A stretch of 64,000 bases of DNA, from the NCBI GenBank assembly GCA_964644965.1, contig CAZXYN010000002.1, positions 3,075-67,074 of the forward strand, written 5' to 3'. This DNA comes from an uncultured Candidatus Saccharibacteria bacterium. GTDB taxonomy: Bacteria; Patescibacteriota; Saccharimonadia; Saccharimonadales; JACDBH01. Within the stretch, counting starts at the first letter, position 1; every line of letters begins with the position of its first letter. A program made the position numbers and the translations under genes. Below, in pieces: positions 14,976 through 62,980 of this stretch. The notes under the pieces are model-generated. The model was not told the origin of the DNA and searched no databases. It saw nothing but the letters and a program-made list of their open reading frames with translations.

Positions 14976-16571
14976 ATGGAATTTCTACGTTCAAAATTAA
15001 AGATGGTCAAGCGCCGTGACTATATACCGGAGAAAGTATATGCTCGTCGCTGGTACACGCTTGGTGTACTCTGTCTGTCACTGATAGTGGTGATGGTGGG
15101 GAACACGGCGCTCAATGTTGCGTTGCCGGTACTTGCGCGTGATTTGTCGGCGACCAACTCGCAGTTGCAGTGGATGGTGGATTCCTATTCGTTGGTGTTT
15201 GCGGGCTTTTTGTTCACGGCCGGCGCCATAGGCGACCGTTTTGGGCGCAAGGGAATACTGCAGGCAGGACTGGTTCTGTTTGGCGCGGCTTCGCTCTATG
15301 CTGGGACTCTGGCAGAAACAGCTACGGCGCTAATTGTGGCAAGGGCTTTCATGGGTCTAGCTGGCGCTATGATTATGCCGGCTACGCTGTCTATTCTGAC
15401 AAATATTTTCCCTACGAAAGAACGTGCCCGAGCTGTTGGTATTTGGGCGGGTGTTAGTGGCGCCGGTGTGGCGCTGGGACCACTGCTAACAGGCTTCGTT
15501 TTAGAGCACTTCAGCTGGCACGCAGTGTTCCTGATAAATATTCCACTGATTGTAATCACGCTGCTGACCGGTGTATTTCTGGTGCCGCGGACAGCTGATC
15601 CTGAACATACGCATCTGGATCCAGTCGGGGCCGGGCTGTCTATTGTCGGACTAGTGTCACTGGTTTACGCAATTATCGAAGGTCCGCATCACGGCTGGAC
15701 ATCGGCGATGACGCTAGGAATCGGTGCGCTTGGTCTGCTGGCGCTTGGCCTGTTTGTTCTGTGGGAACTTCACCACAAGAATCCGATGCTCGATGTACGG
15801 CTATTCAAAATACCGGCCTTTGGTATCAGCTCGTTGACGTTGACATTAGTGTTCTTTGCGCTGATGGGCATTTTCTTCAATATGAGCCAGCTGTTGCAGC
15901 TGGTGTTTGGCTATTCGCCGCTTGAATCCGCCGTACGCATGTTGCCAGTGGCCTTTACGATCATGATTGCTGCGCCATTGTCACCTAGGCTGGTTGAAAA
16001 GTTCGGCAAAAGAAGAGTAGTAGCGGCTGGTATGTTGCTGGTGGCAATCGGCACCTTCAGTTTGTCTCTGATTGGTCTGGATTCGCCGTTCATCGCACTA
16101 GCTGGCTGTATGGTACTGGTGGCCATGGGTATGGGTACAGCAATGTCGCCAACGACTGATCTGCTGATGTCGGCTGTGCCAAAAAACCGCGCCGGTATGG
16201 GTTCTGCTATGAACGATACTACACGCGAACTGGGGGGAGCGTTAGGTATCGCTGTGCTCGGGAGTATTCTCGCGTCACAGTATTCGAACAGAATTGCGCC
16301 AGTTGTGGCTCAGGTTCCTGAATCTGCCAAATCTTTCGTGGAACAATCTCTAGCCGGTGCGTTGGCTGTTGCCGAGCAAGCTGGTGCTGCTGGCGAACCA
16401 CTGGTTCGGGCTTCTAAAGAAGCTTGGTTGGGTGGCTATCGCTACTCACTAATTATTGGTGCGATAATGATTGCCATTGCTGCCATCATTGCCTACAGAG
16501 GTCTACCTGATTCGGCCGCCGACGAAGAAATCCCAGAAGAGGGTAATTTCGAAGCCTCAGAGCTGAAGTAG
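14976..16571 (+). CDS. MFS transporter, DHA2 (EmrB/QacA-like, 14-TMS) drug:H+ antiporter
   Basis: Motif A-like GAIGDRFGRKG, ~14 hydrophobic segments, and length typical of DHA2. Confidence 0.85.
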   Translation: MEFLRSKLKMVKRRDYIPEKVYARRWYTLGVLCLSLIVVMVGNTALNVALPVLARDLSATNSQLQWMVDSYSLVFAGFLFTAGAIGDRFGRKGILQAGLVLFGAASLYAGTLAETATALIVARAFMGLAGAMIMPATLSILTNIFPTKERARAVGIWAGVSGAGVALGPLLTGFVLEHFSWHAVFLINIPLIVITLLTGVFLVPRTADPEHTHLDPVGAGLSIVGLVSLVYAIIEGPHHGWTSAMTLGIGALGLLALGLFVLWELHHKNPMLDVRLFKIPAFGISSLTLTLVFFALMGIFFNMSQLLQLVFGYSPLESAVRMLPVAFTIMIAAPLSPRLVEKFGKRRVVAAGMLLVAIGTFSLSLIGLDSPFIALAGCMVLVAMGMGTAMSPTTDLLMSAVPKNRAGMGSAMNDTTRELGGALGIAVLGSILASQYSNRIAPVVAQVPESAKSFVEQSLAGALAVAEQAGAAGEPLVRASKEAWLGGYRYSLIIGAIMIAIAAIIAYRGLPDSAADEEIPEEGNFEASELK

Positions 16572-17588: not shown

Positions 17589-19463
17589 ATGGAGAAAAAA
17601 CCGTTTAGTCCTAAAAATAATTCTAGTGGAGGAAATAACAAACGAAGCCTAAAGAATGCTGGCTTTATTGCCATGCTAGTTCTTATCGCCGCCGTGGTAT
17701 TTGCTGCTTATAATCAACCAACCAAACTAGAGGAAAAGCCTTATAGTCAGGTTGTCTCAGAGGCCAACGAAGGCAAGTACGAAAAGCTAACTATCTCTGG
17801 TAGTCAGGTAGAAGTCACTGAAAAGGGCGAGGAAGAGGCAACAATTATCTCGCAGAAGGATCCGAACTCAACTATCGCTGATGATGGTATCGATACCGAA
17901 AAGGTGCAGGTAGAGTACGAAAAACCAGATGACGGTGGCGGAATGCTGGCTCAGCTTGGTATCGCGCTGTTACCAGTCATCTTAATTGGTTTCATCCTAT
18001 TCTATATGCTGCGTAGCGCTCAGGGGCAAGGCAACCAGGCAATGAGTTTCGGCAAAAGCCGGGCAAAACTCTATGGCAATGAAAAGAACAAGGTATTATT
18101 CAAGGACATTGCTGGTTCTGAAGAGCCAAAGCAAGACCTAGAAGAGATTGTAGAATTCCTGAAATACCCTAAGAAATTCGAAGGCGTTGGTGCCAAGATT
18201 CCAAAAGGTGTCTTGCTAGTAGGGCCTCCTGGTACTGGTAAAACAATGTTGGCGCGAGCAGTCGCTGGCGAGGCAAATACGCCGTTCTTTAGTATCAGTG
18301 GTTCCGAATTCGTAGAAATGTTTGTAGGTGTTGGTGCAAGTCGTGTTCGTGATTTGTTTGCTAAAGCAAAAAAGAATGCTCCTTGCATTATATTCGTCGA
18401 CGAAATCGATGCTGTTGGCCGCCGTCGTGGCTCTGGTATGGGTGGTGGTCATGATGAGCGCGAACAGACCCTCAATCAGATTTTGGTAGAAATGGATGGA
18501 TTCGAACAAGGCGCTAACGTGATTGTGCTAGCTGCAACCAACCGTGCCGATGTGCTTGATCCTGCCCTGCTTCGTCCTGGACGTTTTGACCGGCGCGTAA
18601 ATATAGGACTACCTGACCGCAAAGACCGCGAAGCTATTCTAAAGATTCACTTCAACAAAAAGCCACTCGGCAAAAAAGTTGATCTAGACGCACTAGCCGC
18701 CAAGACAGCTGGTAGTAGCGGTGCTGACCTAGGAAACATCGCCAACGAAGCAGCAATTCTAGCGGCACGCGATAACCGCAAAGAAATCACTCAGGCCGAT
18801 GTAACTGGCGCTTTTGAGAGGGTCGCAATTGGGCCAGAGCGCAAGAGCAAGATTATGTCAGACAAGGACAAGGAAATGACAGCCTATCACGAGGCTGGAC
18901 ACGCGATTGTTGGCCATGTGCTACCAGACAGTGACATGGTACACAAAGTCACCATAATTCCGCGTGGTGGCACTGGCGGTGTGACGTGGTTTATTCCACC
19001 AGAGGACAAGAGCTACCACAGTATTATTGAATATAAAGATATATTGGCCCGCATGCTCGGTGGGCGTATTGCAGAAGAAGTCATCTACGGGTCAGACCGC
19101 GTGACAACTGGTGCTGGTTCTGACCTGCAGAAGGCGGCTGAACTTGCCCGCGAGATGGTTGTGAACCAGGGTATGGGTAGCGGCAAGCTGCGCAACCAAG
19201 TCTTCCATGTCGAAGAAGGCATGATGATGGAGCGCATGGTGCACGAAAAGCAATTCTCTGAAGATACTGCCAAGCTGATTGATGACGAGGTAGAAACTCT
19301 GATTACCGAGGCAGCCACGCGTGCCCGCCAGGTCATTGAATCAAATCCTAAGGAACTAGAAGCTCTCAAGGATGCTCTGATTAAGAAAGAAACTGTCGAA
19401 GCCGAAGAAGTCATTGAGATTCTAAAAGACAGCAAGATGCCAAAAACCGCTGCGCTTTACTAA
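17589..19463 (+). CDS. ftsH: ATP-dependent zinc metalloprotease FtsH
   Basis: GPPGTGKT Walker A, IIFVDEID Walker B, SRH region, HEAGHA zinc site, and N-terminal TM segments. Confidence 0.97.
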
Positions 19464-19892
19464 TACTCTTAACTTCTTCGGATGAAGAAGCAAATCGTTA
19501 CCTTTTTGTGTCGACAAAAAGGTAACCCAAAAAACTCGGCCAAAAATGTCTCTTGGCTTAGCCAGTTGTCAAAAGACACAACGCCTCGGACGACTCCTTA
19601 CAGTCGACCCAGCAAGTTTCATAGTTGAGTTGCTGGGCTAAGTCCTCGGCAATTGTTGTGCTTTTGAGCAACGCCTAAACCAGGAGCCATTTTCATGGCC
19701 AATAAGCCCAAGGACAATCCGCTGTACAGCGGATGACCACAAGAACATAAGCATAACTCCAAAAAAGATAAACGAGTTATCTGCTTTGGAGAGCGCGGGA
19801 GTCGGGGTTTTGTACTGGGGTTGTTTTGATGAACAGCGTGAGCCGTTCCAACCTGTTCCAAAGTCCCCTCTCCCGCTTGTTGCTCTCTGCTT

Positions 19893-20279
19893 CTACATGA
19901 AGTCTCCTGGGTACAGCGATGCTGCTTCGCGAGCAAGCTCGTCATTGCCGAAGTGCCGACGGGCGCGATTGTACACCTCGGTCGTCGAAAGGTAGTCATC
20001 CTCCTCATCGAAGTCGTCGTAGTCGGCCTCAGCCTTCTTGGGATCGCACTGGAAGCAGGACTTGAAGGGTCTCGTCGAAACGGCGACTCCGTGGCAGGTG
20101 CTGCAGCGATGCAGAACACCTCGGCGGATGAGCTCGTCGTAGAAGAGCTGCATCTGCTCGGGCTTGACGTCAATGCCGGTGCCGTAGAGGCTTGTGCTCT
20201 GGCGGGAAGTGCTGAAATGCCGAACGAAGTGCTCGACGATTTCGGACTCTTCTTGAGTGAGTTCAGTAGCGGTGGTCAT
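19893..20279 (-). CDS. Hypothetical 128-aa CxxC...CxxC (zinc-ribbon-like) protein on a GC-rich island
   Basis: ATG preceded by AAGGAG 6 nt upstream. Motifs are C-ST-C and C-FQ-C with an acidic DYDDFDEEDDY stretch. Codons are strongly G/C-ending, unlike neighbouring genes. Confidence 0.6.
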   Translation of the reverse strand: MTTATELTQEESEIVEHFVRHFSTSRQSTSLYGTGIDVKPEQMQLFYDELIRRGVLHRCSTCHGVAVSTRPFKSCFQCDPKKAEADYDDFDEEDDYLSTTEVYNRARRHFGNDELAREAASLYPGDFM

Positions 20280-20510
20280 GGATTGCTCCTTGGGTTGTGA
20301 TCTTTTGATCGGGTGAGTCCCAGAGTTCGTAACTGGAGTAGAGACCACGATTATTCGTGAGCTTTATTCCAGCTACAAATAGGAAGCAACAGGGAGCAAT
20401 GCCTCTATATCTTTACAGATACAGGGGTCTGACAGAGAGCTTTTAAGTTTCGTGCTAAGGGTAAACCTTGGCACAATACACATTGTAGCATAAGCTTGAT
20501 AAAAAGTCAA

Positions 20511-20593
20511 CCTCGTAGTGAGCTTTCTAGACTCCGCCCTTGGTGGACTAGGGCTGCCCTTGAGGGCAGCCAACTCGAAAGTCTACTACGGGG
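20511..20593 (+). repeat. Family-2 structured hairpin element, copy X (83 nt)
   Basis: Basal stem CCTCGTAGTGAGCTTTC / GAAAGTCTACTACGGGG with a central G-U/A-C/G-U. Apical hairpins are CCGCC-CTT-GGTGG and GGCTGCCC-TTGA-GGGCAGCC. It is flanked by GTCAA on both sides. Confidence 0.7.
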
Positions 20594-20773
20594 TCAATAT
20601 GTTGGCTACTCTTCTATCATCTTGTGCTGGCAATCATGGCAACGGTCAGCCATAATAGTAGTGAATGAATCCCGTAAGTAAGCAACAGATCGGTACTGTA
20701 TATTATGCGCATGAATATGCGGTAAGTGTTAGTGCGTCTCATTTATGTTGGCTAGAAGGTAACTACTAACGGT

Positions 20774-22405
20774 ATGAAAAGCCGTATTCTTAGCCGTGCC
20801 AATAAGAAAGTGTCCTTTGGTGGCGCAGCTACATTATTAGTTGTAACTGCCATGATTGGCCAGGTCTTAGGGTTTTTGCGTGTAAAGTTCATCAATGCCA
20901 ACTTTGATGCGCTTGGTCCGCACAGTACCGACGCTTTTTTTGCGGCCTTTAAGATTCCTGATTTCTTCTTCTATACAGTTGCTGCCGGTGCACTTGGTGT
21001 TGCCTTTATCCCTGTTCTGGCCGATCGGCTAGAAGAAAAAGATCGCAAGGGTGCCTGGGAATTATCTTCTAGCCTATTGAACTTGCTAGCTATAGTAATG
21101 TCGGTAGTAGGTGTGCTGCTATTTGTGTTTGCCGAACCGCTGATTCACTACGTCGTTGCGCCAGACATGAGCCCTCAGCAGTTGCACAACGCGGTGTTGA
21201 TTATGCGGCTGATTTCATTCAACCCACTGCTGTTCACGATTGGTGGTATTTTGACGGCGGCTCAACAGACTATGGGGCGGTTCTTTTATTTTGCGGTGGC
21301 TCCCTTGTTCTACAACATCAGTATTATTATTTCGGCAATTGTATTTAGTAATGTTGGGTCGAATGACGGTGGGCCGAACAATCTAGGACTAGTTGGTCTA
21401 GGAGTTGGTGCGCTGATTGGTGCGATTTTGCAGCTGGTGGTCATAATTGTTGGTATGGGTGGACTGAAGTATCGTTGGCACCCAAAGATAAACTTCCGGT
21501 CCAGGCACTTCCTGATGGTGCTGCGTCAGCTGCCGGCACGTTCGATTGACCAAGGTATTGATTCGATCAACTCAATTGTAGAGACCAACTTTGCTCGTAG
21601 ACTTGGCACAGGCTATCTGAGTTACTACGAAAATGCCTACACGCTGCATACAGCACCGATTTTGCTTATTGGTTCGGCAATATCAACAGCTGCTTTTCCA
21701 CGTATGAGCGAGCGGTTGGCGCAAGGGCGGCGTGATCTTTTCCGTAAGGAATTCTTACAAATACTGCGAATTATGATCTGGATTACGGTGCCAGTAGTAG
21801 TGGTGTCATTCTTTGCACGAGGCTATCTGGCGCGCGTTATCTTTAGTCGTGACGCGCCGGAGATTGCGGCTATTTTTGGCTTTTTGTGTGCGGCAATATT
21901 CTTCCGAGTCATTTACTCAATTGTGTCGCGCTATTTCTACGCCCAGAAGGACACCTTGACACCACTATTCGTGTCTATATTTGCTATTGGATTGAACATT
22001 TTCCTGGCCTGGCATTTATCAAGGCCATGGAATTATGGCGTGGCTGGGCTGGCGATGGCACAATCTATTGTTGCAGCTGCGGAAGTATTTATCCTGTCGG
22101 CAATCATGGTTTATTACGATCACAAGCTATTTGATAAGGAGTTCTGGAGTGGTATTTGGCGAATTATGTCAGTAACTGGCTTTAGCGTCGTAGCAGCTTA
22201 TACGATGGTGCAAATATTCCCACTGCAATCAGGAGATGTTGGATTTGTGACGCTTGGCTTTAAGCTCATGCTGATTACAATCGTTACCGGCGTCACCCAT
22301 GTTGGACTGTCTTATCTATTTGGGCTAGAAGAAGCCGAACCGGTCATTCGCAAGCTCAAGCAATTGATGCGCATTGTCCTAAGGCCAGTACACATCGACT
22401 GGTAA
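20774..22405 (+). CDS. murJ: Lipid II flippase MurJ/MviN
   Basis: 543 aa with ~14 TM segments. The N-terminal region (SRxLGFxRxxxIA-like: GQVLGFLRVKFINANFD) and overall architecture match MurJ. Confidence 0.85.
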   Translation: MKSRILSRANKKVSFGGAATLLVVTAMIGQVLGFLRVKFINANFDALGPHSTDAFFAAFKIPDFFFYTVAAGALGVAFIPVLADRLEEKDRKGAWELSSSLLNLLAIVMSVVGVLLFVFAEPLIHYVVAPDMSPQQLHNAVLIMRLISFNPLLFTIGGILTAAQQTMGRFFYFAVAPLFYNISIIISAIVFSNVGSNDGGPNNLGLVGLGVGALIGAILQLVVIIVGMGGLKYRWHPKINFRSRHFLMVLRQLPARSIDQGIDSINSIVETNFARRLGTGYLSYYENAYTLHTAPILLIGSAISTAAFPRMSERLAQGRRDLFRKEFLQILRIMIWITVPVVVVSFFARGYLARVIFSRDAPEIAAIFGFLCAAIFFRVIYSIVSRYFYAQKDTLTPLFVSIFAIGLNIFLAWHLSRPWNYGVAGLAMAQSIVAAAEVFILSAIMVYYDHKLFDKEFWSGIWRIMSVTGFSVVAAYTMVQIFPLQSGDVGFVTLGFKLMLITIVTGVTHVGLSYLFGLEEAEPVIRKLKQLMRIVLRPVHIDW

Positions 22406-22560: not shown

Positions 22561-24338
22561 ATCAGTCGCATATCCGGAACTTCTGTATTATTGCGCATAT
22601 AGATCACGGCAAATCTACGCTAGCTGATCGCTTGCTGGAACTAACCGATACCGTGCAGAAGCGAGACATGAAAGCGCAGCTGCTGGACAAGATGGACCTA
22701 GAGCGCGAAAAGGGAATTACTATCAAGCTGACCCCTGTTCAGATGGAATACAAGGGCTATCAGCTAAATCTAATCGATACACCAGGGCATGTCGACTTTA
22801 GCTACGAAGTATCGCGTAGTCTTGAGGCTTGCGAAGGCGCAATCTTAGTCGTAGATGCCAGTCAGGGCATTCAGGCGCAGACACTCGCCAATGTCTACTT
22901 GGCAATGGCAGCCGATCTGAAAATTATTCCAGTATTGAATAAGATTGATTTACCGGCGGCTGACGTGCCTAGAGTATCGGCAGAGGTTGTTAGTCTACTT
23001 GGTTGTGACGAAAGTGAAATACTCCACATCTCTGCCAAGACCGGCGAAGGTGTGCCGGCGGTGTTAGATGCTGTAGTAGAACAAATTGACTCGCCAAAAG
23101 GAAGTGGTGATACAGAAACACGGGCTCTAATATTCGATAGTTACTACGATGATTACCGAGGGGTTGTACTATATGTCCGCATTGTAGACGGTGAAATTAC
23201 CAAAGCCTCTGACATCACCATGATGGGAACACAGAGTCACGGTTTGGCTTTAGAAGTTGGAAAACTTAGTCCTGGTATGACACCAACCTCATCACTCAGA
23301 ACAGGAGAGATTGGCTACATTGTGACCAATCTCAAATCTACCCGCGAGGCAAAAGTTGGTGATACGGTGACGCTCAGTAAATCCCAAGCAGCCGAGGCAC
23401 TACCCGGCTACAAAGAAGTGAAGCCGTTTGTTTATGCCGGTATATTTCCAGAAAGCAATGAGTACTACAATGAGCTCAAAGAAGCTGTCGAAAAGCTGTC
23501 GCTCAGTGATTCAGCGTTGCAGTACGAGCCAGAAAATTCACCAGTTCTAGGATTTGGTGTGCGGGTTGGCTTCTTGGGGCTACTGCACATGGAGATTGTC
23601 CGCGAGCGTCTGGAACGTGAATACTCTTTGAGCTTAATTATTACTAATCCAAGCACCGACTATCACGTCAAACTTCTGAACGGCGAGCAAGTGGACATAA
23701 AATCTGCTAGCAGCTTGCCCGATCCTGCTAAGATTGCATCTATTGCCGAGCCGTGGATAAAAGGCGAAATCGTCGTGCCGAAGGAATATGTAGGTGCGGT
23801 CATTCAGCTAATATCGCAAAAGCGTGGACTACAAAAAGGGCTAAGCTTTGTCGATGCACAGTTGGCTCTAGTTAACTTCGAAGCACCACTAGCTAACTTA
23901 CTAACAGACTTTTATGATCAGCTCAAAAGCGTGACCAGTGGCTACGGATCGTTCAATTACGAACTGGGCGAATACCGCGAGGAAGATTTGGTGCGCGTAG
24001 ATTTCTATGTTGCCAGCGAGATTGTCGGTGCGCTTTCTGTGATGGCTCACAAAACAGAAGCTGATGCACTTGGGCGCGAGACCGTTGCCAAGCTTAAGGA
24101 AGTCATACCACGGCAGAACTTCAAGGTAGCCTTGCAGGCAGCAATCGGCGGTAGATTTATTGCCCGCGAAGATATTTCGGCTTATCGCAAGGACGTAACT
24201 AGTGGGCTCTACGGTGGTGATGTATCACGTAAGAAGAAGGTGCTAGCCAAGCAAAAGAAGGGCAAGGAACGTCTAAAACGCTTTGGCAAGGTAGATATCC
24301 CAGCCGAAGCCTTCACAGTAATGCTGAAACGAGATTAA
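22557..24338 (+). CDS. lepA: Elongation factor 4 (LepA)
   Basis: IRNFCIIAHIDHGKSTLADR G1 motif, DTPGHVDF, NKIDL, and the LepA-specific C-terminal domain. GTG start. Confidence 0.97.
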   Translation: MNQSHIRNFCIIAHIDHGKSTLADRLLELTDTVQKRDMKAQLLDKMDLEREKGITIKLTPVQMEYKGYQLNLIDTPGHVDFSYEVSRSLEACEGAILVVDASQGIQAQTLANVYLAMAADLKIIPVLNKIDLPAADVPRVSAEVVSLLGCDESEILHISAKTGEGVPAVLDAVVEQIDSPKGSGDTETRALIFDSYYDDYRGVVLYVRIVDGEITKASDITMMGTQSHGLALEVGKLSPGMTPTSSLRTGEIGYIVTNLKSTREAKVGDTVTLSKSQAAEALPGYKEVKPFVYAGIFPESNEYYNELKEAVEKLSLSDSALQYEPENSPVLGFGVRVGFLGLLHMEIVRERLEREYSLSLIITNPSTDYHVKLLNGEQVDIKSASSLPDPAKIASIAEPWIKGEIVVPKEYVGAVIQLISQKRGLQKGLSFVDAQLALVNFEAPLANLLTDFYDQLKSVTSGYGSFNYELGEYREEDLVRVDFYVASEIVGALSVMAHKTEADALGRETVAKLKEVIPRQNFKVALQAAIGGRFIAREDISAYRKDVTSGLYGGDVSRKKKVLAKQKKGKERLKRFGKVDIPAEAFTVMLKRD

Positions 24339-24345
24339 TCTCCTC

Positions 24346-24418
24346 GGGAAGAGCAGCCAGAGCACCAGGCTTTGCCTGTGCCCTGCGTGATGAGAAACCC
24401 CGAAGGGGTGTCTCATTA
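24346..24418 (+). repeat. Family-1 two-hairpin repeat, copy A
   Basis: GGGAAGAGCAGCC AGAGCACCAGG CTTTG CCTGTGCCCT GCGT GATGAGAAACCCCGAAGGGGTGTCTCATTA, beginning 7 nt after the lepA stop. Confidence 0.8.
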
Positions 24419-24424
24419 GGTCCC

Positions 24425-24457
24425 AAGCCTTCACAGTAATGCTGAAACGAGATTAAT
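24425..24457 (+). repeat. Exact 33-nt duplicate of the lepA 3' end
   Basis: aagccttcacagtaatgctgaaacgagattaat is identical to 24307-24339 (last 10 codons plus stop). The two copies flank an 85-nt segment containing repeat copy A. Confidence 0.9.
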
Positions 24458-34253: not shown

Positions 34254-34285
34254 TATTGACAAAGTACTATAAAATGTGCTAAAAT

Positions 34286-35215
34286 ATGTACATGAACACT
34301 AAAAAACCCCGTATACTTATACTTTCGTCTGCAGAAGATATCAATGAAAGCATTCCTCTCAATGATCATTTTGTTGCTGAGCTAAAAAAGCGTATTGGTA
34401 ACGAAGTCTCGATTGAGTGGCATAACTATCACAATATAAAGATCGAATATAAAAGTGATGAGCTACAGGTATCGCTACTAAGAGAAAACAAATCGCTAAA
34501 GGACTTTGATTTTGTGTATATTAAGTCGTTTTTTAGGTACAGCGAAATAGCTGGGATTATCGCGGAATATTTATATGTAAATAACGTGCGTTTTGTAAGT
34601 AGTGAGCTAAAAGACCATATCGCTGCAACTAAGCTAACTCAGCTTGCACGTCTTGCGATGAATAAACTTCCTATCCCGCAAACAATTTTCATGTTGCCAG
34701 AACAGTTTTCTAAGCGCTACCAAGAAGTTAGTGATGCGCTGGGAGTACCTTTTATTTTTAAATCAATTGATGGTGCCGGTGGTGAAGAAAATTACCTCAT
34801 AAAGAGCGAAGAAAAACTACAAGCGGCACTAAAAGAATTCCCAGAACACAAGTTTATTGCACAGAAATTCATTGAAAACGACAGCGATTATAGGCTGCTA
34901 GTAGTTGATGGCAAAGTCCAGCTTATCATTAAGCGTCAACGCGCTGGGGGTGATACACACCTGAATAACACTTCTCAAGGAGCCCAAGCTACCTTAACCG
35001 CTATCGATAAATTTCCTCATGAATGCATAGATATGTCACTACAGGCGGCAAAAATCATGAAGCGAGAAATCGCTGGTGTTGATCTGCTTTTCGAAACAGG
35101 TACAAATAATCCTTATATTCTTGAGGTCAATGCAAGTCCCCAGATTGCAAGCGGTGCATTCCAGGCAGAAAAAATTGACATATATAGTAAATATTTTAAA
35201 AATATGGTAAAATAG
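34286..35215 (+). CDS. RimK-like ATP-grasp ligase (second paralogue)
   Basis: ATP-grasp blocks FIFKSIDGAGGEENYLI, QKFIENDSDYRLLVV and GVDLLF...ILEVNASP. The promoter is TTGACA-18-TAAAAT, and the likely true start is ATG 34292. Confidence 0.7.
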   Translation: MYMNTKKPRILILSSAEDINESIPLNDHFVAELKKRIGNEVSIEWHNYHNIKIEYKSDELQVSLLRENKSLKDFDFVYIKSFFRYSEIAGIIAEYLYVNNVRFVSSELKDHIAATKLTQLARLAMNKLPIPQTIFMLPEQFSKRYQEVSDALGVPFIFKSIDGAGGEENYLIKSEEKLQAALKEFPEHKFIAQKFIENDSDYRLLVVDGKVQLIIKRQRAGGDTHLNNTSQGAQATLTAIDKFPHECIDMSLQAAKIMKREIAGVDLLFETGTNNPYILEVNASPQIASGAFQAEKIDIYSKYFKNMVK

Positions 35216-38264: not shown

Positions 38265-38341
38265 GGGCCCATAGCTCAGCCGGTTAGAGCATCTGCCTTT
38301 TAAGCAGAGTGTCGTGGGTTCGAGTCCCACTGGGCCCTCCA
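38265..38341 (+). tRNA. tRNA-Lys (anticodon UUU)
   Basis: GGGCCCA TA GCTC AGCCGGTTA GAGC A TCTGC CTTTTAA GCAGA GTGTC GTGGG TTCGAGT CCCAC TGGGCCC T CCA. Confidence 0.95.
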
Positions 38342-38350
38342 TACAAAATG

Positions 38351-38373
38351 CCTCAGCAAAGCTGGGGCTTTTT
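38351..38373 (+). terminator. Intrinsic terminator after tRNA-Lys
   Basis: CCTCAGC-AAA-GCTGGGG followed by CTTTTT. Confidence 0.7.
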
Positions 38374-38497: not shown

Positions 38498-38515
38498 GTC
38501 CCACTGGGCCCTCCA
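38498..38515 (+). repeat. Direct repeat of the last 18 nt of tRNA-Lys (att-like)
   Basis: gtcccactgggccctcca is identical to 38324-38341. Confidence 0.85.
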
Positions 38516-38524
38516 AATTCAGTA

Positions 38525-38544
38525 CCCCTCGAAAGAGGGGTTTT
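38525..38544 (+). terminator. Terminator-like hairpin
   Basis: CCCCTC-GAAA-GAGGGG followed by TTTT. Confidence 0.6.
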
Positions 38545-62908: not shown

Positions 62909-62980
62909 GGGAAGAGCAGCCAGACAAAATGTATTCCATTTTGCCTACGCGATGAGAAACCCCGAAGGGGTGTCTCATTA
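62909..62980 (+). repeat. Family-1 two-hairpin repeat, copy C
   Basis: GGGAAGAGCAGCC AGACAAAATG TATTC CATTTTGCCT ACGC GATGAGAAACCCCGAAGGGGTGTCTCATTA. It abuts the stop codon of the convergent small ORF. Confidence 0.8.

Follow-up and report, generated by a model that had tools for sequence, protein, structure and literature searches.

An RNA-framed, GC3-rich gene between ftsH and murJ and a candidate cassette family of Saccharibacteria

The unit between ftsH and murJ

In the window, the 64,000-nt (64-kb) stretch of Saccharibacteria DNA that was analysed as a whole, ftsH and murJ are separated by 1310 bp, whereas the same gap spans 24-120 bp in most of 80 relatives. These 80 GTDB species representatives all keep the tilS-ftsH-murJ-lepA synteny, and all lack the cassette at ftsH-murJ. 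The island is an added, self-contained module, with its own promoter and terminator-like hairpins. Its features, in the direction of transcription, are as follows.

20511-20773, no strand assigned: spacer from the cassette promoter to the murJ start, including a hairpin at 20530-20590; fold z=-2.4; BLAST matches itself only
20482-20510, minus: promoter, TTGACT, 17-nt spacer, TGC-TACAAT (extended -10); scan score 10/12 plus the TG extension
20452-20474, minus: hairpin P1, GUGCCAAGG/CCUUAGCAC, located where the transcript is predicted to begin; it forms in the minimum-energy fold
20430-20442, minus: 5' strand of the clamp, AAGCUCUCUGUCA; all 8 core pairs form in the unconstrained fold
20390-20400, minus: anti-Shine-Dalgarno box AUUGCUCCCUG, complementary to positions 20282-20292, which hold the ribosome-binding site (91%, inverted repeat I14)
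20325-20382, minus: long leader hairpin P5, with an inner CACGA/UCGUG stem; RNAalifold over 5 loci, 24 pairs, 12 compensatory
20299-20310, minus: small hairpin P6, GAUC-AAAA-GAUC, just 5' of the ribosome-binding site; conserved or covarying (GAGCU...AGCUC) in L007, L090, L096 and L097
19893-20279, minus: coding sequence of a 128-aa acidic protein, GC3 0.74, its N-terminal helical part carrying C59, C62, C75 and C78
19880-19892, minus: 3' strand of the clamp, AAGCAGAGAGCAA, beginning 1 nt past the stop codon
19795-19876, minus: long 3' hairpin P3, GCGGGAGAGGGG...CCCCGACUCCCGC, with inner arm GGUUGGAACG...CGUUC...AACC
19757-19791, minus: hairpin P4 with A-tract and U-tract, CUCCAAAGCAGAUAA...UUAUCUUUUUUGGAG; inverted repeat I5
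19465-19756, minus: tail B, an extra structured 3' extension of about 290 nt; fold z=-8.0 (19465-19760 against shuffles)
19717-19734, 19538-19700 and 19497-19526, in tail B: an 18-nt palindrome, a branched 163-nt hairpin and a perfect 13-bp hairpin
19473-19490, minus: 8-bp hairpin of tail B, abutting the ftsH stop codon

The same architecture is common to 11 distinct loci, which are the whole of the family sample, several of them on short contigs. Each consists of a promoter of the consensus extended -10 type, a 5'-terminal hairpin, a structured leader of 95-200 nt (close to 200 nt in the window), one to three GC3-rich ORFs and two covarying 3' hairpins, giving predicted full transcripts of 670-1290 nt. 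The motif-bearing ORF is the last in 9/11 loci, with small ORFs following it in L006 and L007. Wherever the hosts are placeable, they are Saccharibacteria-type genomes for all loci. Three related genomes carry the cassette beside ftsH, namely that of the window (WIN), L096 and L097, and one contig of the two sister genomes covers the complete ftsH-murJ site; cassettes related to the window's also occupy other genomic sites. We regard it as an even call whether the island represents a copy of an accessory transcription unit that is so far undescribed, residing in Saccharibacteria genomes in all placeable cases.

At the murJ border, the membership of the spacer (20511-20773) in this unit is not shown: it was matched in no other locus, and its palindrome core is unique in the window. 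The first-pass annotation had recognised the hairpin at 20530-20590 as a "family-2 element", but a second copy was sought in the 64-kb window and none was found.

Protein and codon composition

The minus-strand ORF at 19893-20279 was confirmed, with AAGGAG lying 8 nt 5' of the ATG, and its 128-aa product contains both the HRCSTCH...SCFQC and the DYDDFDEEDDY segments originally read from it. The N-terminal part is followed by an acidic linker, and then by a C-terminal two-helix module ending in YPGDFM. Across the family, the motif ORF likewise ends in an acidic run and a two-helix module, ...HFGNxELAREAxxxYPGDF[IM]-COOH, and the enclosed ORFs encode acidic proteins of 51-357 aa, the smallest members being the tail only. 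An exhaustive HMM search covering 1.8 billion representative proteins recovered only 46 remote relatives that have the C-terminal 40 aa in common, wide conservation being limited to the last 40 residues and the heads being unrelated in sequence. AlphaFold2 modelled residues 100-128 with a pLDDT of 95-97, after a first structure model, from 3 sequences, had been discarded (pLDDT 57). A role of this C-terminal motif as an arrest peptide is not favoured, as the module is confidently modelled as a folded helical hairpin under ordinary protein-level constraint.

The protein had initially been assigned to no nameable family, and this was borne out. Searches of Pfam, PHROGs, NCBIfam and PADLOC returned nothing on the 128-aa protein, and the sole match among the 46 relatives was to a cold-shock domain, in one remote relative's head. 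Neither a PDB sequence-profile search nor Foldseek against PDB gave anything significant, winged-helix-like matches being discarded as weak (probability <=0.4). Acidic words dominated the results of a word-indexed protein search made with the C-terminal profile; with the acidic part masked, it returned short proteins only. The CxxC pair had early on been described as zinc-ribbon-like. As in zinc-ribbon and four-Cys knuckle proteins, the two pairs, C59-x2-C62 ... C75-x2-C78, flank a predicted beta-hairpin (residues 56-67), and the four Cys are retained in close and site-sharing relatives; however, the spacing becomes C-x4-C or C-x5-C ... C-x-C in L097 and L096, and no match was found in Pfam or PDB.

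High GC content gives long open frames on both strands, and the flanks of this gene are heavily structured, as would be the case if the ORF were spurious and the island a GC-rich non-coding RNA gene. Long shadow ORFs do occur on both strands, at 19619-20173 (minus) and 19953-20300 (plus), where the first-pass annotation had noted one such frame; they arise because of the GC3 bias. Nevertheless, substitutions in the gene are codon-periodic, with mismatches of 0.31/0.24/0.51 at codon positions 1/2/3 of the C-terminal motif, and dN/dS is about 0.2 (0.17-0.25, with 0.19-0.25 for the window's gene against L006 and L007). The C-terminal module is moreover conserved as protein across unrelated heads and has a confident predicted structure, and the strong Shine-Dalgarno (SD) sequence is correctly spaced. 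We therefore give the non-coding reading almost no credence.

The codon composition of this gene is a clear outlier. Its GC3 is 0.736, against a mean of 0.451 (sd 0.056, maximum 0.558) for the 64 other ORFs of the window (z=5.1), which upholds the description of a GC-rich island with G/C-ending codons between ftsH and murJ. In 300-nt windows, GC peaks at 0.57-0.60 across 19800-20300, against 0.466 for the whole window, but 15000-15500 also reaches 0.55-0.57, meaning that the GC peak of the island is by itself not unique. This composition had been read as fitting horizontal acquisition, with either a high-GC host among the Actinobacteria or an actinophage as donor; were the import recent, the GC3 excess would be an un-ameliorated donor signature. 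Besides the GC3 outlier itself, the absence of the cassette at ftsH-murJ in 80 relatives and its own promoter and terminator would fit such an arrival.

The family-wide evidence points elsewhere. Firstly, two sister genomes carry divergent homologues (37-44% aa identity) beside ftsH with GC3 of 0.70-0.82, although their own composition is far lower: in L097, at the same site, GC3 is 0.70 for the cassette but 0.18-0.24 for the genes that flank it, and in L096 it is 0.82 against 0.31, one of these two genomes having 36% GC and a flanking GC3 of about 0.2. Hence homologous cassettes keep high GC3 in low-GC3 genomes, and the composition is a stable cassette trait rather than the mark of a recent arrival; the same composition thus recurs in part of the clade. 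Secondly, synonymous differences of the W-to-S and S-to-W types occur in about equal numbers when WIN, L006 and L007 are compared, even at dS of 0.5-0.8, meaning that turnover is not that of a decaying signature. Thirdly, another promoter of the window, at 34256-34285, has the same consensus form as that of the cassette. Fourthly, two protein-pattern scans of IMG/VR found no relative, 50,697 phage records and 72,556 plasmids gave no match, none of the 46 HMM relatives could be tied to Actinobacteria, and the placeable loci are all from Saccharibacteria. Exact 15-17-mer scans of viral contigs returned 39 loci in one case and 21 in the other; the covariance model detected the 3' element in none of them, and these were attributed to chance. 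Of the original proposal, the added module therefore stands, absent as it is from 80 relatives, while the host or actinophage donor is unsupported, and recent import is highly improbable. Family members lacking an RNA frame also exist (L088 and L091); GC3 is 0.59-0.92 in framed ORFs and 0.30-0.38 in unframed members of the family.

The RNA frame and its distribution

Transcription is predicted from the sequence to start at about 20475, and the other 10 cassette loci have the same promoter with a similar spacer. The position of P1 is filled in other loci by a hairpin of different sequence. Downstream of it, the leader segment GCUCUCUGU pairs with ACAGAGAGC, enclosing the entire coding part in a loop; we refer to this pairing as the clamp. 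The 3' segment lies 3-22 nt after the stop codon, which in L006 and L007 is after the extra small ORFs. Across 10 loci, the clamp comprises 13 pairs that are 89% paired, with 6 compensatory, a result equalled by 0/500 shuffles and compared with 35-50% for slid controls. Over the same 10 loci, 7 of its cells are G·U, pairing in the sense RNA only, and the clamp is found in the unconstrained minimum-energy fold of 11/11 full transcripts.

The box at 20390-20400 is paired in the minimum-energy fold of the window, and pairing between leader and SD occurs in such folds in 4/11 loci only (WIN, L006, L090 and L093). Forcing the clamp open in silico left SD pairing unchanged. Hence no simple switch is demonstrated, and a clamp-controlled SD switch was rejected on this unchanged pairing. 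The clamp was also rejected as an RNase III processing stem, since 9-13 bp is too short for a classical site. Structure of the coding region beyond that expected from composition is weak, at z of about -1 per gene against synonymous shuffles, whereas the whole window transcript folds with z=-6.2.

The 3' element covaries too. In P3 and P4, 27/35 pairs are compensatory, and 92% of cells are paired against 38-50% with slid partners; a covariance model of this element from 5 loci recovers 4 further loci outside the model. P4 is probably an intrinsic terminator, and the cassettes of L006, L096 and L097 stop there, tail B being missing from all three. Tail B is 70% identical to positions 1123-1373 of L007, with 18/81 pairs compensatory and 0 broken. 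The structured tail reported initially is present as GCGGGAG.../...CTCCCGC at 19795-19876, ATCCGCTGTACAGCGGAT at 19717-19734 and CCCAGCAA/TTGCTGGG at 19608-19637, and the 13-bp hairpin is also there, albeit 2 nt from its first placement (19497-19526, not 19499-19528). The tail of about 430 nt was described as free of ORFs, and in the ORF list for 19465-19892 none was found, shadow ORFs aside.

Searches of Rfam returned no match at E<=1 over 19300-20900, only sub-threshold chance matches in six related loci, and over the whole window only three tRNAs meeting the gathering score. A strand test comparing sense and antisense fold energies was uninformative, for P3/P4 as well as for the leader. The first-pass annotation had overlooked that the 5' leader is conserved, that the 5' and 3' parts pair, and that wide conservation is confined to the protein's last 40 residues.

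Some aspects of this distribution are those expected of a DNA-level mobile element, with GCTCTCTGT/ACAGAGAGC as terminal inverted repeats or recombination sites, a MITE-like tail B, and hairpins acting as DNA. Cassettes are patchily distributed over unrelated sites, the ftsH-murJ gap being an insertion hot spot, and the window's protein is closer to those of L006 and L007 at other sites (67-70% aa identity) than to those of its ftsH-adjacent sisters (37-44%). In addition, a 52-nt stretch of tail B recurs inverted in L007, upstream of the promoter. Yet the clamp stays paired through its 7 G·U cells, which at the DNA level would be mismatched and would read A·C on the opposite strand, and conservation continues outside both repeats, to the promoter and P1 on one side and P3 and P4 on the other. 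Neither transposase, integrase nor target-site duplication was seen at the examined loci and borders, and the cassette is single-copy, neither the 64-kb window nor about 1 Mb from relatives containing another. A MITE or IS element was rejected on this continued conservation, the single copy and the absence of border duplication. Ordinary homologous recombination would account for the patchiness without any DNA-level sites, and we judge a mobile element unlikely.

Three further classes of element were considered and rejected. Integron cassettes consist of a promoterless ORF and an attC with RYYYAAC/GTTRRRY core sites, whereas this unit has a strong promoter, and the ends of P3 (GCGGGAG/CTCCCGC, CCAGGAG/CTCCTGG), on inspection, misfit those cores. 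In a diversity-generating retroelement target, the C-terminus would be variable and an IMH and hairpin would come after it, together with a neighbouring template repeat and reverse transcriptase, but here it is the most conserved part, and no direct repeat of it was found in the window. A retron was rejected on size and because there is no adjacent reverse transcriptase.

A proposed looped message and its known counterparts

The explanation that best combines these observations is an undescribed cassette family, in which an mRNA looped by conserved 5'-3' pairing encodes variable proteins with a constant 40-residue tail, although our confidence in it is evenly balanced. The frame of 5' hairpin, 5'-3' clamp and 3' hairpins, together with the AU-poor coding region, would make the mRNA compact and nuclease-resistant. 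In some members, including the window's, the upstream complementary box would mask the ribosome-binding site, giving a closed state comparable to the one described for hok mRNA at full length. A terminating ribosome, at 3-22 nt from the clamp, would open the latter. The variable head may bind nucleic acids, through a four-Cys knuckle, a cold-shock-like domain or others, while the constant C-terminal helical hairpin would dock on a conserved Saccharibacterial partner; the constancy of this module suggests a single one. The high GC3 would then be kept in the cassette by RNA selection or by exchange between cassettes, rather than reflecting recent import. From this arrangement we infer the function: the mRNA would be locked and stable, and would deliver a variable protein to which a constant docking tail is attached.

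A more ambitious and rather doubtful extension is that these loci represent a new class of RNA-framed, exchangeable cassettes in Saccharibacteria, which are CPR bacteria, combining a closed-loop, latent mRNA, a frame serving as homology arms and a C-terminal signal. If so, promoter, leader, clamp and 3' hairpins, all of them conserved, would together form a closed-loop mRNA device for storing a message that is stable and latent, and the frame would allow the enclosed ORFs to be swapped from genome to genome among epibionts with natural competence. As cargo there would be fast-diversifying small proteins, sharing a C-terminal export or docking signal for the interaction with the bacterial host.

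Saccharibacteria are reduced epibionts, in which the function of nearly all accessory genes is obscure. The cassette is a definable, searchable unit, through its protein motif and strongly covarying RNA frame, that recurs across Saccharibacteria, with a rate of evolution far above that of the core genome. A gene with GC3 of 0.7-0.9 in genomes of GC3 0.2-0.45, beside the same core gene in related genomes, is also an unusual and clean case, in which mutational bias, horizontal transfer and selection on mRNA composition could be told apart. The partner of the C-terminal module, once identified, would provide a handle on the whole orphan protein set.

Several known systems share parts of this organisation. 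Phage morons, in the definition of Hendrix and Juhala, are reportedly autonomous units of promoter, gene and terminator that deviate in composition and interrupt a series of conserved genes, and the cassette is similarly a single small gene of odd composition, with its own sigma-70-type promoter and terminator hairpins, between conserved genes. Unlike morons, it is chromosomal, flanked by ftsH and murJ outside any prophage, no viral or phage relatives of it were found, and it has a family-wide leader, clamp and 3' hairpins, which morons do not. Effector or substrate families that join variable heads to a constant C-terminal recognition domain are exemplified by the XVIPCD of Xanthomonas T4SS effectors and by SSB-type acidic C-terminal tails. 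The cassette module has no sequence similarity to these, and no linked secretion system or partner, but the cassette proteins share the variable or absent head, the acidic linker and a short, highly conserved module that occupies the very C-terminus.

Among bacterial mRNAs, long-range 5'-3' pairing is, to our knowledge, well documented mainly in hok-type toxins, and the cassette, as a second, unrelated 5'-3'-paired mRNA family, would broaden that principle. That it is itself a hok/sok-like type I toxin-antitoxin, in which a closed mRNA silences a toxic small peptide until processing, is very unlikely, although its long-range stem and SD-masking upstream box resemble the tac/fbi/ucb elements of hok mRNA, and hydrophobic ORFs of 39-61 aa lie within the clamp of L006 and L007. 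A small (<60 aa) hydrophobic ORF of the kind that could encode such a toxin is confined to those two loci, being absent from 19465-20520 of the window, and no hydrophobic small ORF lies within the clamp of the window, L096, L097, L090, L094 or L099; the conserved ORF instead encodes an acidic, soluble protein, as do the enclosed 51-357-aa ORFs in being acidic. A consensus scan of the plus strand over 20280-20480 found no antisense promoter in the leader, and no antisense RNA gene was detected for the window cassette by it. Whereas fbi lies at the extreme 3' end of hok mRNA and is trimmed, the 3' strand of the clamp (19880-19892) is internal, preceding the two stable hairpins P3 and P4 as well as tail B, and is not a processed 3' end; nor does the cassette have sequence or Rfam similarity to hok/sok. 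The likeness of the proposed looped message to hok mRNA, with its tac/fbi stem and an SD masked by an upstream box (PMC9841398), is instead one of architecture: in both, the 5' and 3' untranslated regions pair over a long distance to close the mRNA (PMC9841398), an upstream complementary box can mask the SD, and the long-range stem is kept by covariation across the family (PMC9841398).

The ftsH-murJ insertion site

The window is a segment of a Saccharibacteria (Saccharimonadales) chromosome with 46.6% GC overall, and the best relatives of its FtsH, MurJ, TilS and LepA are held by Saccharibacteria MAGs. Between ftsH and murJ, the first-pass annotation had described a GC-rich, horizontally acquired module. 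The ORF claimed at 19893-20279 (minus strand) is there, as is its AAGGAG ribosome-binding site. Its GC-richness is confirmed at third codon positions, GC3 being 0.736 against a mean of 0.451 (sd 0.056, maximum 0.558) in 64 other window ORFs (z=5.1), whereas the bulk GC of 0.58 is high, yet not peculiar to this part of the window. All four hairpins described in the tail were found, the coordinates of one being off by 2 nt, and the tail is indeed ORF-less, with nothing but shadow frames open.

The interval between ftsH and murJ spans 1310 bp in the window. In 80 species representatives retaining tilS-ftsH-murJ-lepA it measures 24-120 bp for the most part, and in none does it contain a relative of the cassette protein. 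Compared with most of the clade, the cassette has therefore been inserted, and to this extent the first reading of an added module stands. The site is a hot spot, since other insertions of 0.2-4.3 kb occupy it in approximately 25 of the 80. In one of these representatives, L008, the DNA downstream of ftsH includes an amine-oxidase-like and a lipoprotein-like gene. On the murJ side, the 263-nt spacer between cassette promoter and murJ (fold z=-2.4) contains a stable hairpin (20530-20590) built around GGCTGCCCTTGAGGGCAGCC, single in the window and absent from related loci.

Elsewhere in the window, a 36-nt direct repeat (24304-24339 and 24422-24457, 97% identical) duplicates the lepA 3' end and brackets a 37-nt GC-rich hairpin, CCTGCGTGATGAGAAACCCCGAAGGGGTGTCTCATTA (24382-24418), with a 95% identical copy 38.5 kb off (62944-62980); the arrangement resembles the insertion of a small hairpin element accompanied by a target duplication. 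At the 3' end of tRNA-Lys (38265-38341), the stretch 38324-38366 is repeated with 72% identity at 38498-38540, 174 nt downstream, and may be an integration remnant at the tRNA. Similarly, 14036-14086 matches both tRNA-Met genes over their 3' halves with 73% identity and may be a tRNA remnant, with no tRNA called there by ARAGORN or Rfam.

Anatomy of the cassette and its long-range helix

Alignment of the flanks of close relatives demonstrated that the non-coding DNA is conserved as well, and carrying this alignment on to remote family members established that 11 distinct loci share one architecture: the window copy and L006, L007, L090, L093, L094, L095, L096, L097, L099 and L161, on other contigs. 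Its conserved non-coding parts (promoter, leader, clamp, P3 and P4) are here called the frame.

Features of the cassette in the window (coordinates, strand, description)
20510-20482, minus: promoter, of family-wide form TTGACA-N17-TGCTAAAAT; scan score in the window 10/12 plus TG extension
20474-20452, minus: hairpin P1, where the transcript is predicted to begin
20442-20430, minus: conserved leader box TTAACAnGCUCUCUGUU
20400-20390 with 20292-20282, minus: predicted pair masking the Shine-Dalgarno sequence
20382-20325, minus: leader structure P5, compensatory pairs 12/24 (five sequences)
20310-20299, minus: leader structure P6
between leader structure and ORF(s): ribosome-binding site
19893-20279, minus: cassette ORF
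19892-19880, minus: post-stop box AACAGAGAGCUU, 3-22 nt past the stop codon across loci other than L006 and L007
19876-19795, minus: long hairpin P3
19791-19757, minus: hairpin P4, terminator-like, with A-tract and U-tract

Rfam contains no family matching the tail or any other cassette part. A second consensus extended -10 promoter in the window, TTGACAAAGTACTATAAAATGTGCTAAAAT (34256-34285), ends right at the start of a low-GC ORF (34286-35215), which suggests that this mRNA is leaderless or has a very short leader.

Each cassette carries one to three ORFs, that with the C-terminal motif coming last at 9/11 loci; L006 and L007 have small ORFs 3' of it, with the post-stop box placed after them. 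Confined to these two loci are hydrophobic ORFs of 39-61 aa (L006 373-504 and 1083-1268; L007 861-980), inside the clamp and beside the motif gene, with GC3 also raised (0.62-0.70), and one having a lipobox-like LAGC. The framed cassette at L161 (4044-5353; ENA ERZ28655018) has three ORFs of 81, 136 and 67 aa, the last being a minimal tail-only member; a type IV pilus operon, pilB-pilC-pilin, follows the cassette in like orientation at a distance of about 400 nt. At L099 and a further related locus, L100, copies of the repeat CGTCATCTCGACCGGAGCG...GGAGAGATCT flank the cassette on both sides; the repeat appears to be one dispersed through that genome.

The leader and post-stop boxes are reverse complements, and four observations concern their pairing, the clamp. 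Firstly, measured at 10 of the 11 loci, its 13 pairs are kept in 89% of cells and six of them have changed on both sides, values that none of 500 shuffles attains for any measure. Secondly, sliding the partner by 1-3 columns reduces pairing to 35-50%. Thirdly, in seven cells the pair is G·U, the U being on the leader side; the opposite strand would have A·C there and DNA a mismatch, which places the helix in the sense RNA. Fourthly, it is in the unconstrained minimum-energy fold of all 11 full predicted transcripts (670-1290 nt), with 8/8 core pairs at each locus except L097 (7/8).

Trained on five loci, a covariance model for P3 plus P4 recovered the non-training loci L094, L099, L090 and L100 in a first search and L161 later (E 1e-5 to 1e-9), and nothing more in the window or approximately 1 Mb of Saccharibacteria loci. 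Its ten-row alignment, one row being an overlapping antisense hit in L097, has compensatory changes in 27/35 pairs, and 92% of cells pair versus 38-50% when slid.

The last 290 nt of the tail as first annotated (tail B, 19465-19756) fall outside this common frame and are common to the window and L007 only, at 70% identity, with two-sided changes in 18 of the 81 pairs predicted, none broken, and a fold z of -8.0. Tail B comprises an 18-nt palindrome, a 163-nt branched hairpin, a perfect 13-bp hairpin and an 8-bp hairpin touching the ftsH stop codon. In both loci the gene downstream is convergent, so the two terminal hairpins may terminate transcription from either direction. In L007, one arm of the long hairpin recurs as an inverted 52-nt copy upstream of the cassette promoter (67-117), hence tail-B-like sequence is on both sides of that whole cassette.

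Protein family, composition and origin

The protein was first described as having no nameable family, and this is borne out by Pfam, PHROGs, NCBIfam, PADLOC, PDB sequences and PDB folds, none of which gave a match. Close relatives numbered only two among 5.8 billion clustered proteins (70% and 67% identity), both on short Logan contigs with differing genomic contexts. Searched exhaustively with a profile, 1.8 billion representatives yielded 46 relatives, of which almost all have in common only the last ~40 residues: an acidic run, then VSTxEVYxRAxxHFGNxELAREAxxxYPGDF[IM], always at the extreme C-terminus. The heads vary, being four-Cys as in the window, cold-shock-like, of at least three other types, or absent (51-67-aa proteins). 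Using the 46-sequence alignment, AlphaFold2 predicted two helices at residues 100-128 (pLDDT 95-97), with the head at pLDDT 58-85. The ORF is demonstrably coding: mismatch in the motif at codon positions 1, 2 and 3 is 0.31, 0.24 and 0.51 (13 loci), and dN/dS is 0.17-0.25 among the three close relatives. By these sequence measures, the motif is constrained at the protein level. The protein looks like a variable head on a constant, putative docking tail. One unframed 53-aa tail-only member, at L088 (8694-9276; GCA_964560175.1), has a 137-aa ORF without a family (GC3 0.28) 7 nt behind it, the pair being inserted between mnmA and the ATP synthase operon on the opposite strand.

GC3 fails, however, as a mark of recent import. 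L097, a genome of 36% GC (identity to the window: FtsH 86%, MurJ 83%, LepA 88%), has a remote homologue of 122 aa (44% identical over 89 aa) at the identical site, in the same orientation and within the same non-coding frame, with GC3 of 0.70 versus 0.18-0.24 in its neighbours. The L096 variant, abutting the ftsH stop codon on a contig ending short of murJ, has GC3 of 0.82 versus 0.31 in the ftsH fragment. Family-wide, framed ORFs have GC3 of 0.59-0.92, independent of contig composition; in L091 and L092, which are unframed, it is 0.30 and 0.38. Between the window, L006 and L007, GC3 is 0.74-0.76 despite dS of 0.5-0.8, and W-to-S differences at synonymous sites roughly offset those from S to W, demonstrating that composition is held, not decaying. 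Synonymous-codon shuffles detected weak extra coding-region structure (z about -1 each, 9/10 negative); if RNA-level selection is the cause of the high GC3, it would act mainly via composition.

The three ftsH-adjacent cassettes have mutual identities of only 36-44%, and that of the window is 67-70% identical to those of L006 and L007, both sited elsewhere. Together with a gene neighbouring the L007 cassette that matches one in L037, another Saccharibacteria lineage, this points to either exchange between genomes or old allelic lineages. An Actinobacteria host or actinophage source, as originally suggested, is without support, as no relative of the protein (patterns) or RNA element (exact DNA words, then covariance model) was found in IMG/VR, nor of either in 50,697 phage records and 72,556 plasmids, and the placeable loci are all in Saccharibacteria genomes, one on a 1.0-Mb contig.

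Proposed working and comparison with known systems

The frame would produce a compact, long-lived mRNA, to which the 5'-terminal hairpin, the clamp (worth 8-20 kcal/mol in folds), the two 3' hairpins and the AU-poor coding region may each contribute stability. A box lying immediately 3' of the clamp 5' strand is paired with the Shine-Dalgarno sequence in 4/11 folds (window, L006, L090 and L093). Forced in-silico opening of the clamp left this masking unchanged, and a clamp-controlled switch is not demonstrated by the models. As the clamp 3' strand starts 3-22 nt past the stop codon at 9/11 loci, it should be unwound by ribosomes that terminate there.

The integron cassette, MITE, DGR target and retron were all rejected as identities. 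Full-length hok mRNA is closed by the tac/fbi stem with its Shine-Dalgarno sequence masked by ucb (PMC9841398), and the cassette resembles it in its 5'-3' fold-back and, in 4/11 folds, masking by an upstream box. However, the window cassette is without a toxin ORF, no antisense gene was found, and the clamp 3' strand is internal. Like a phage moron, the cassette is an autonomous unit of deviant composition, but without phage context. Hence, lacking some defining features of each system, and with no part covered by curated RNA or protein families, the cassette is rated a unit of a new kind, assembled from ordinary parts, with high confidence in its anatomy and low confidence in its function.
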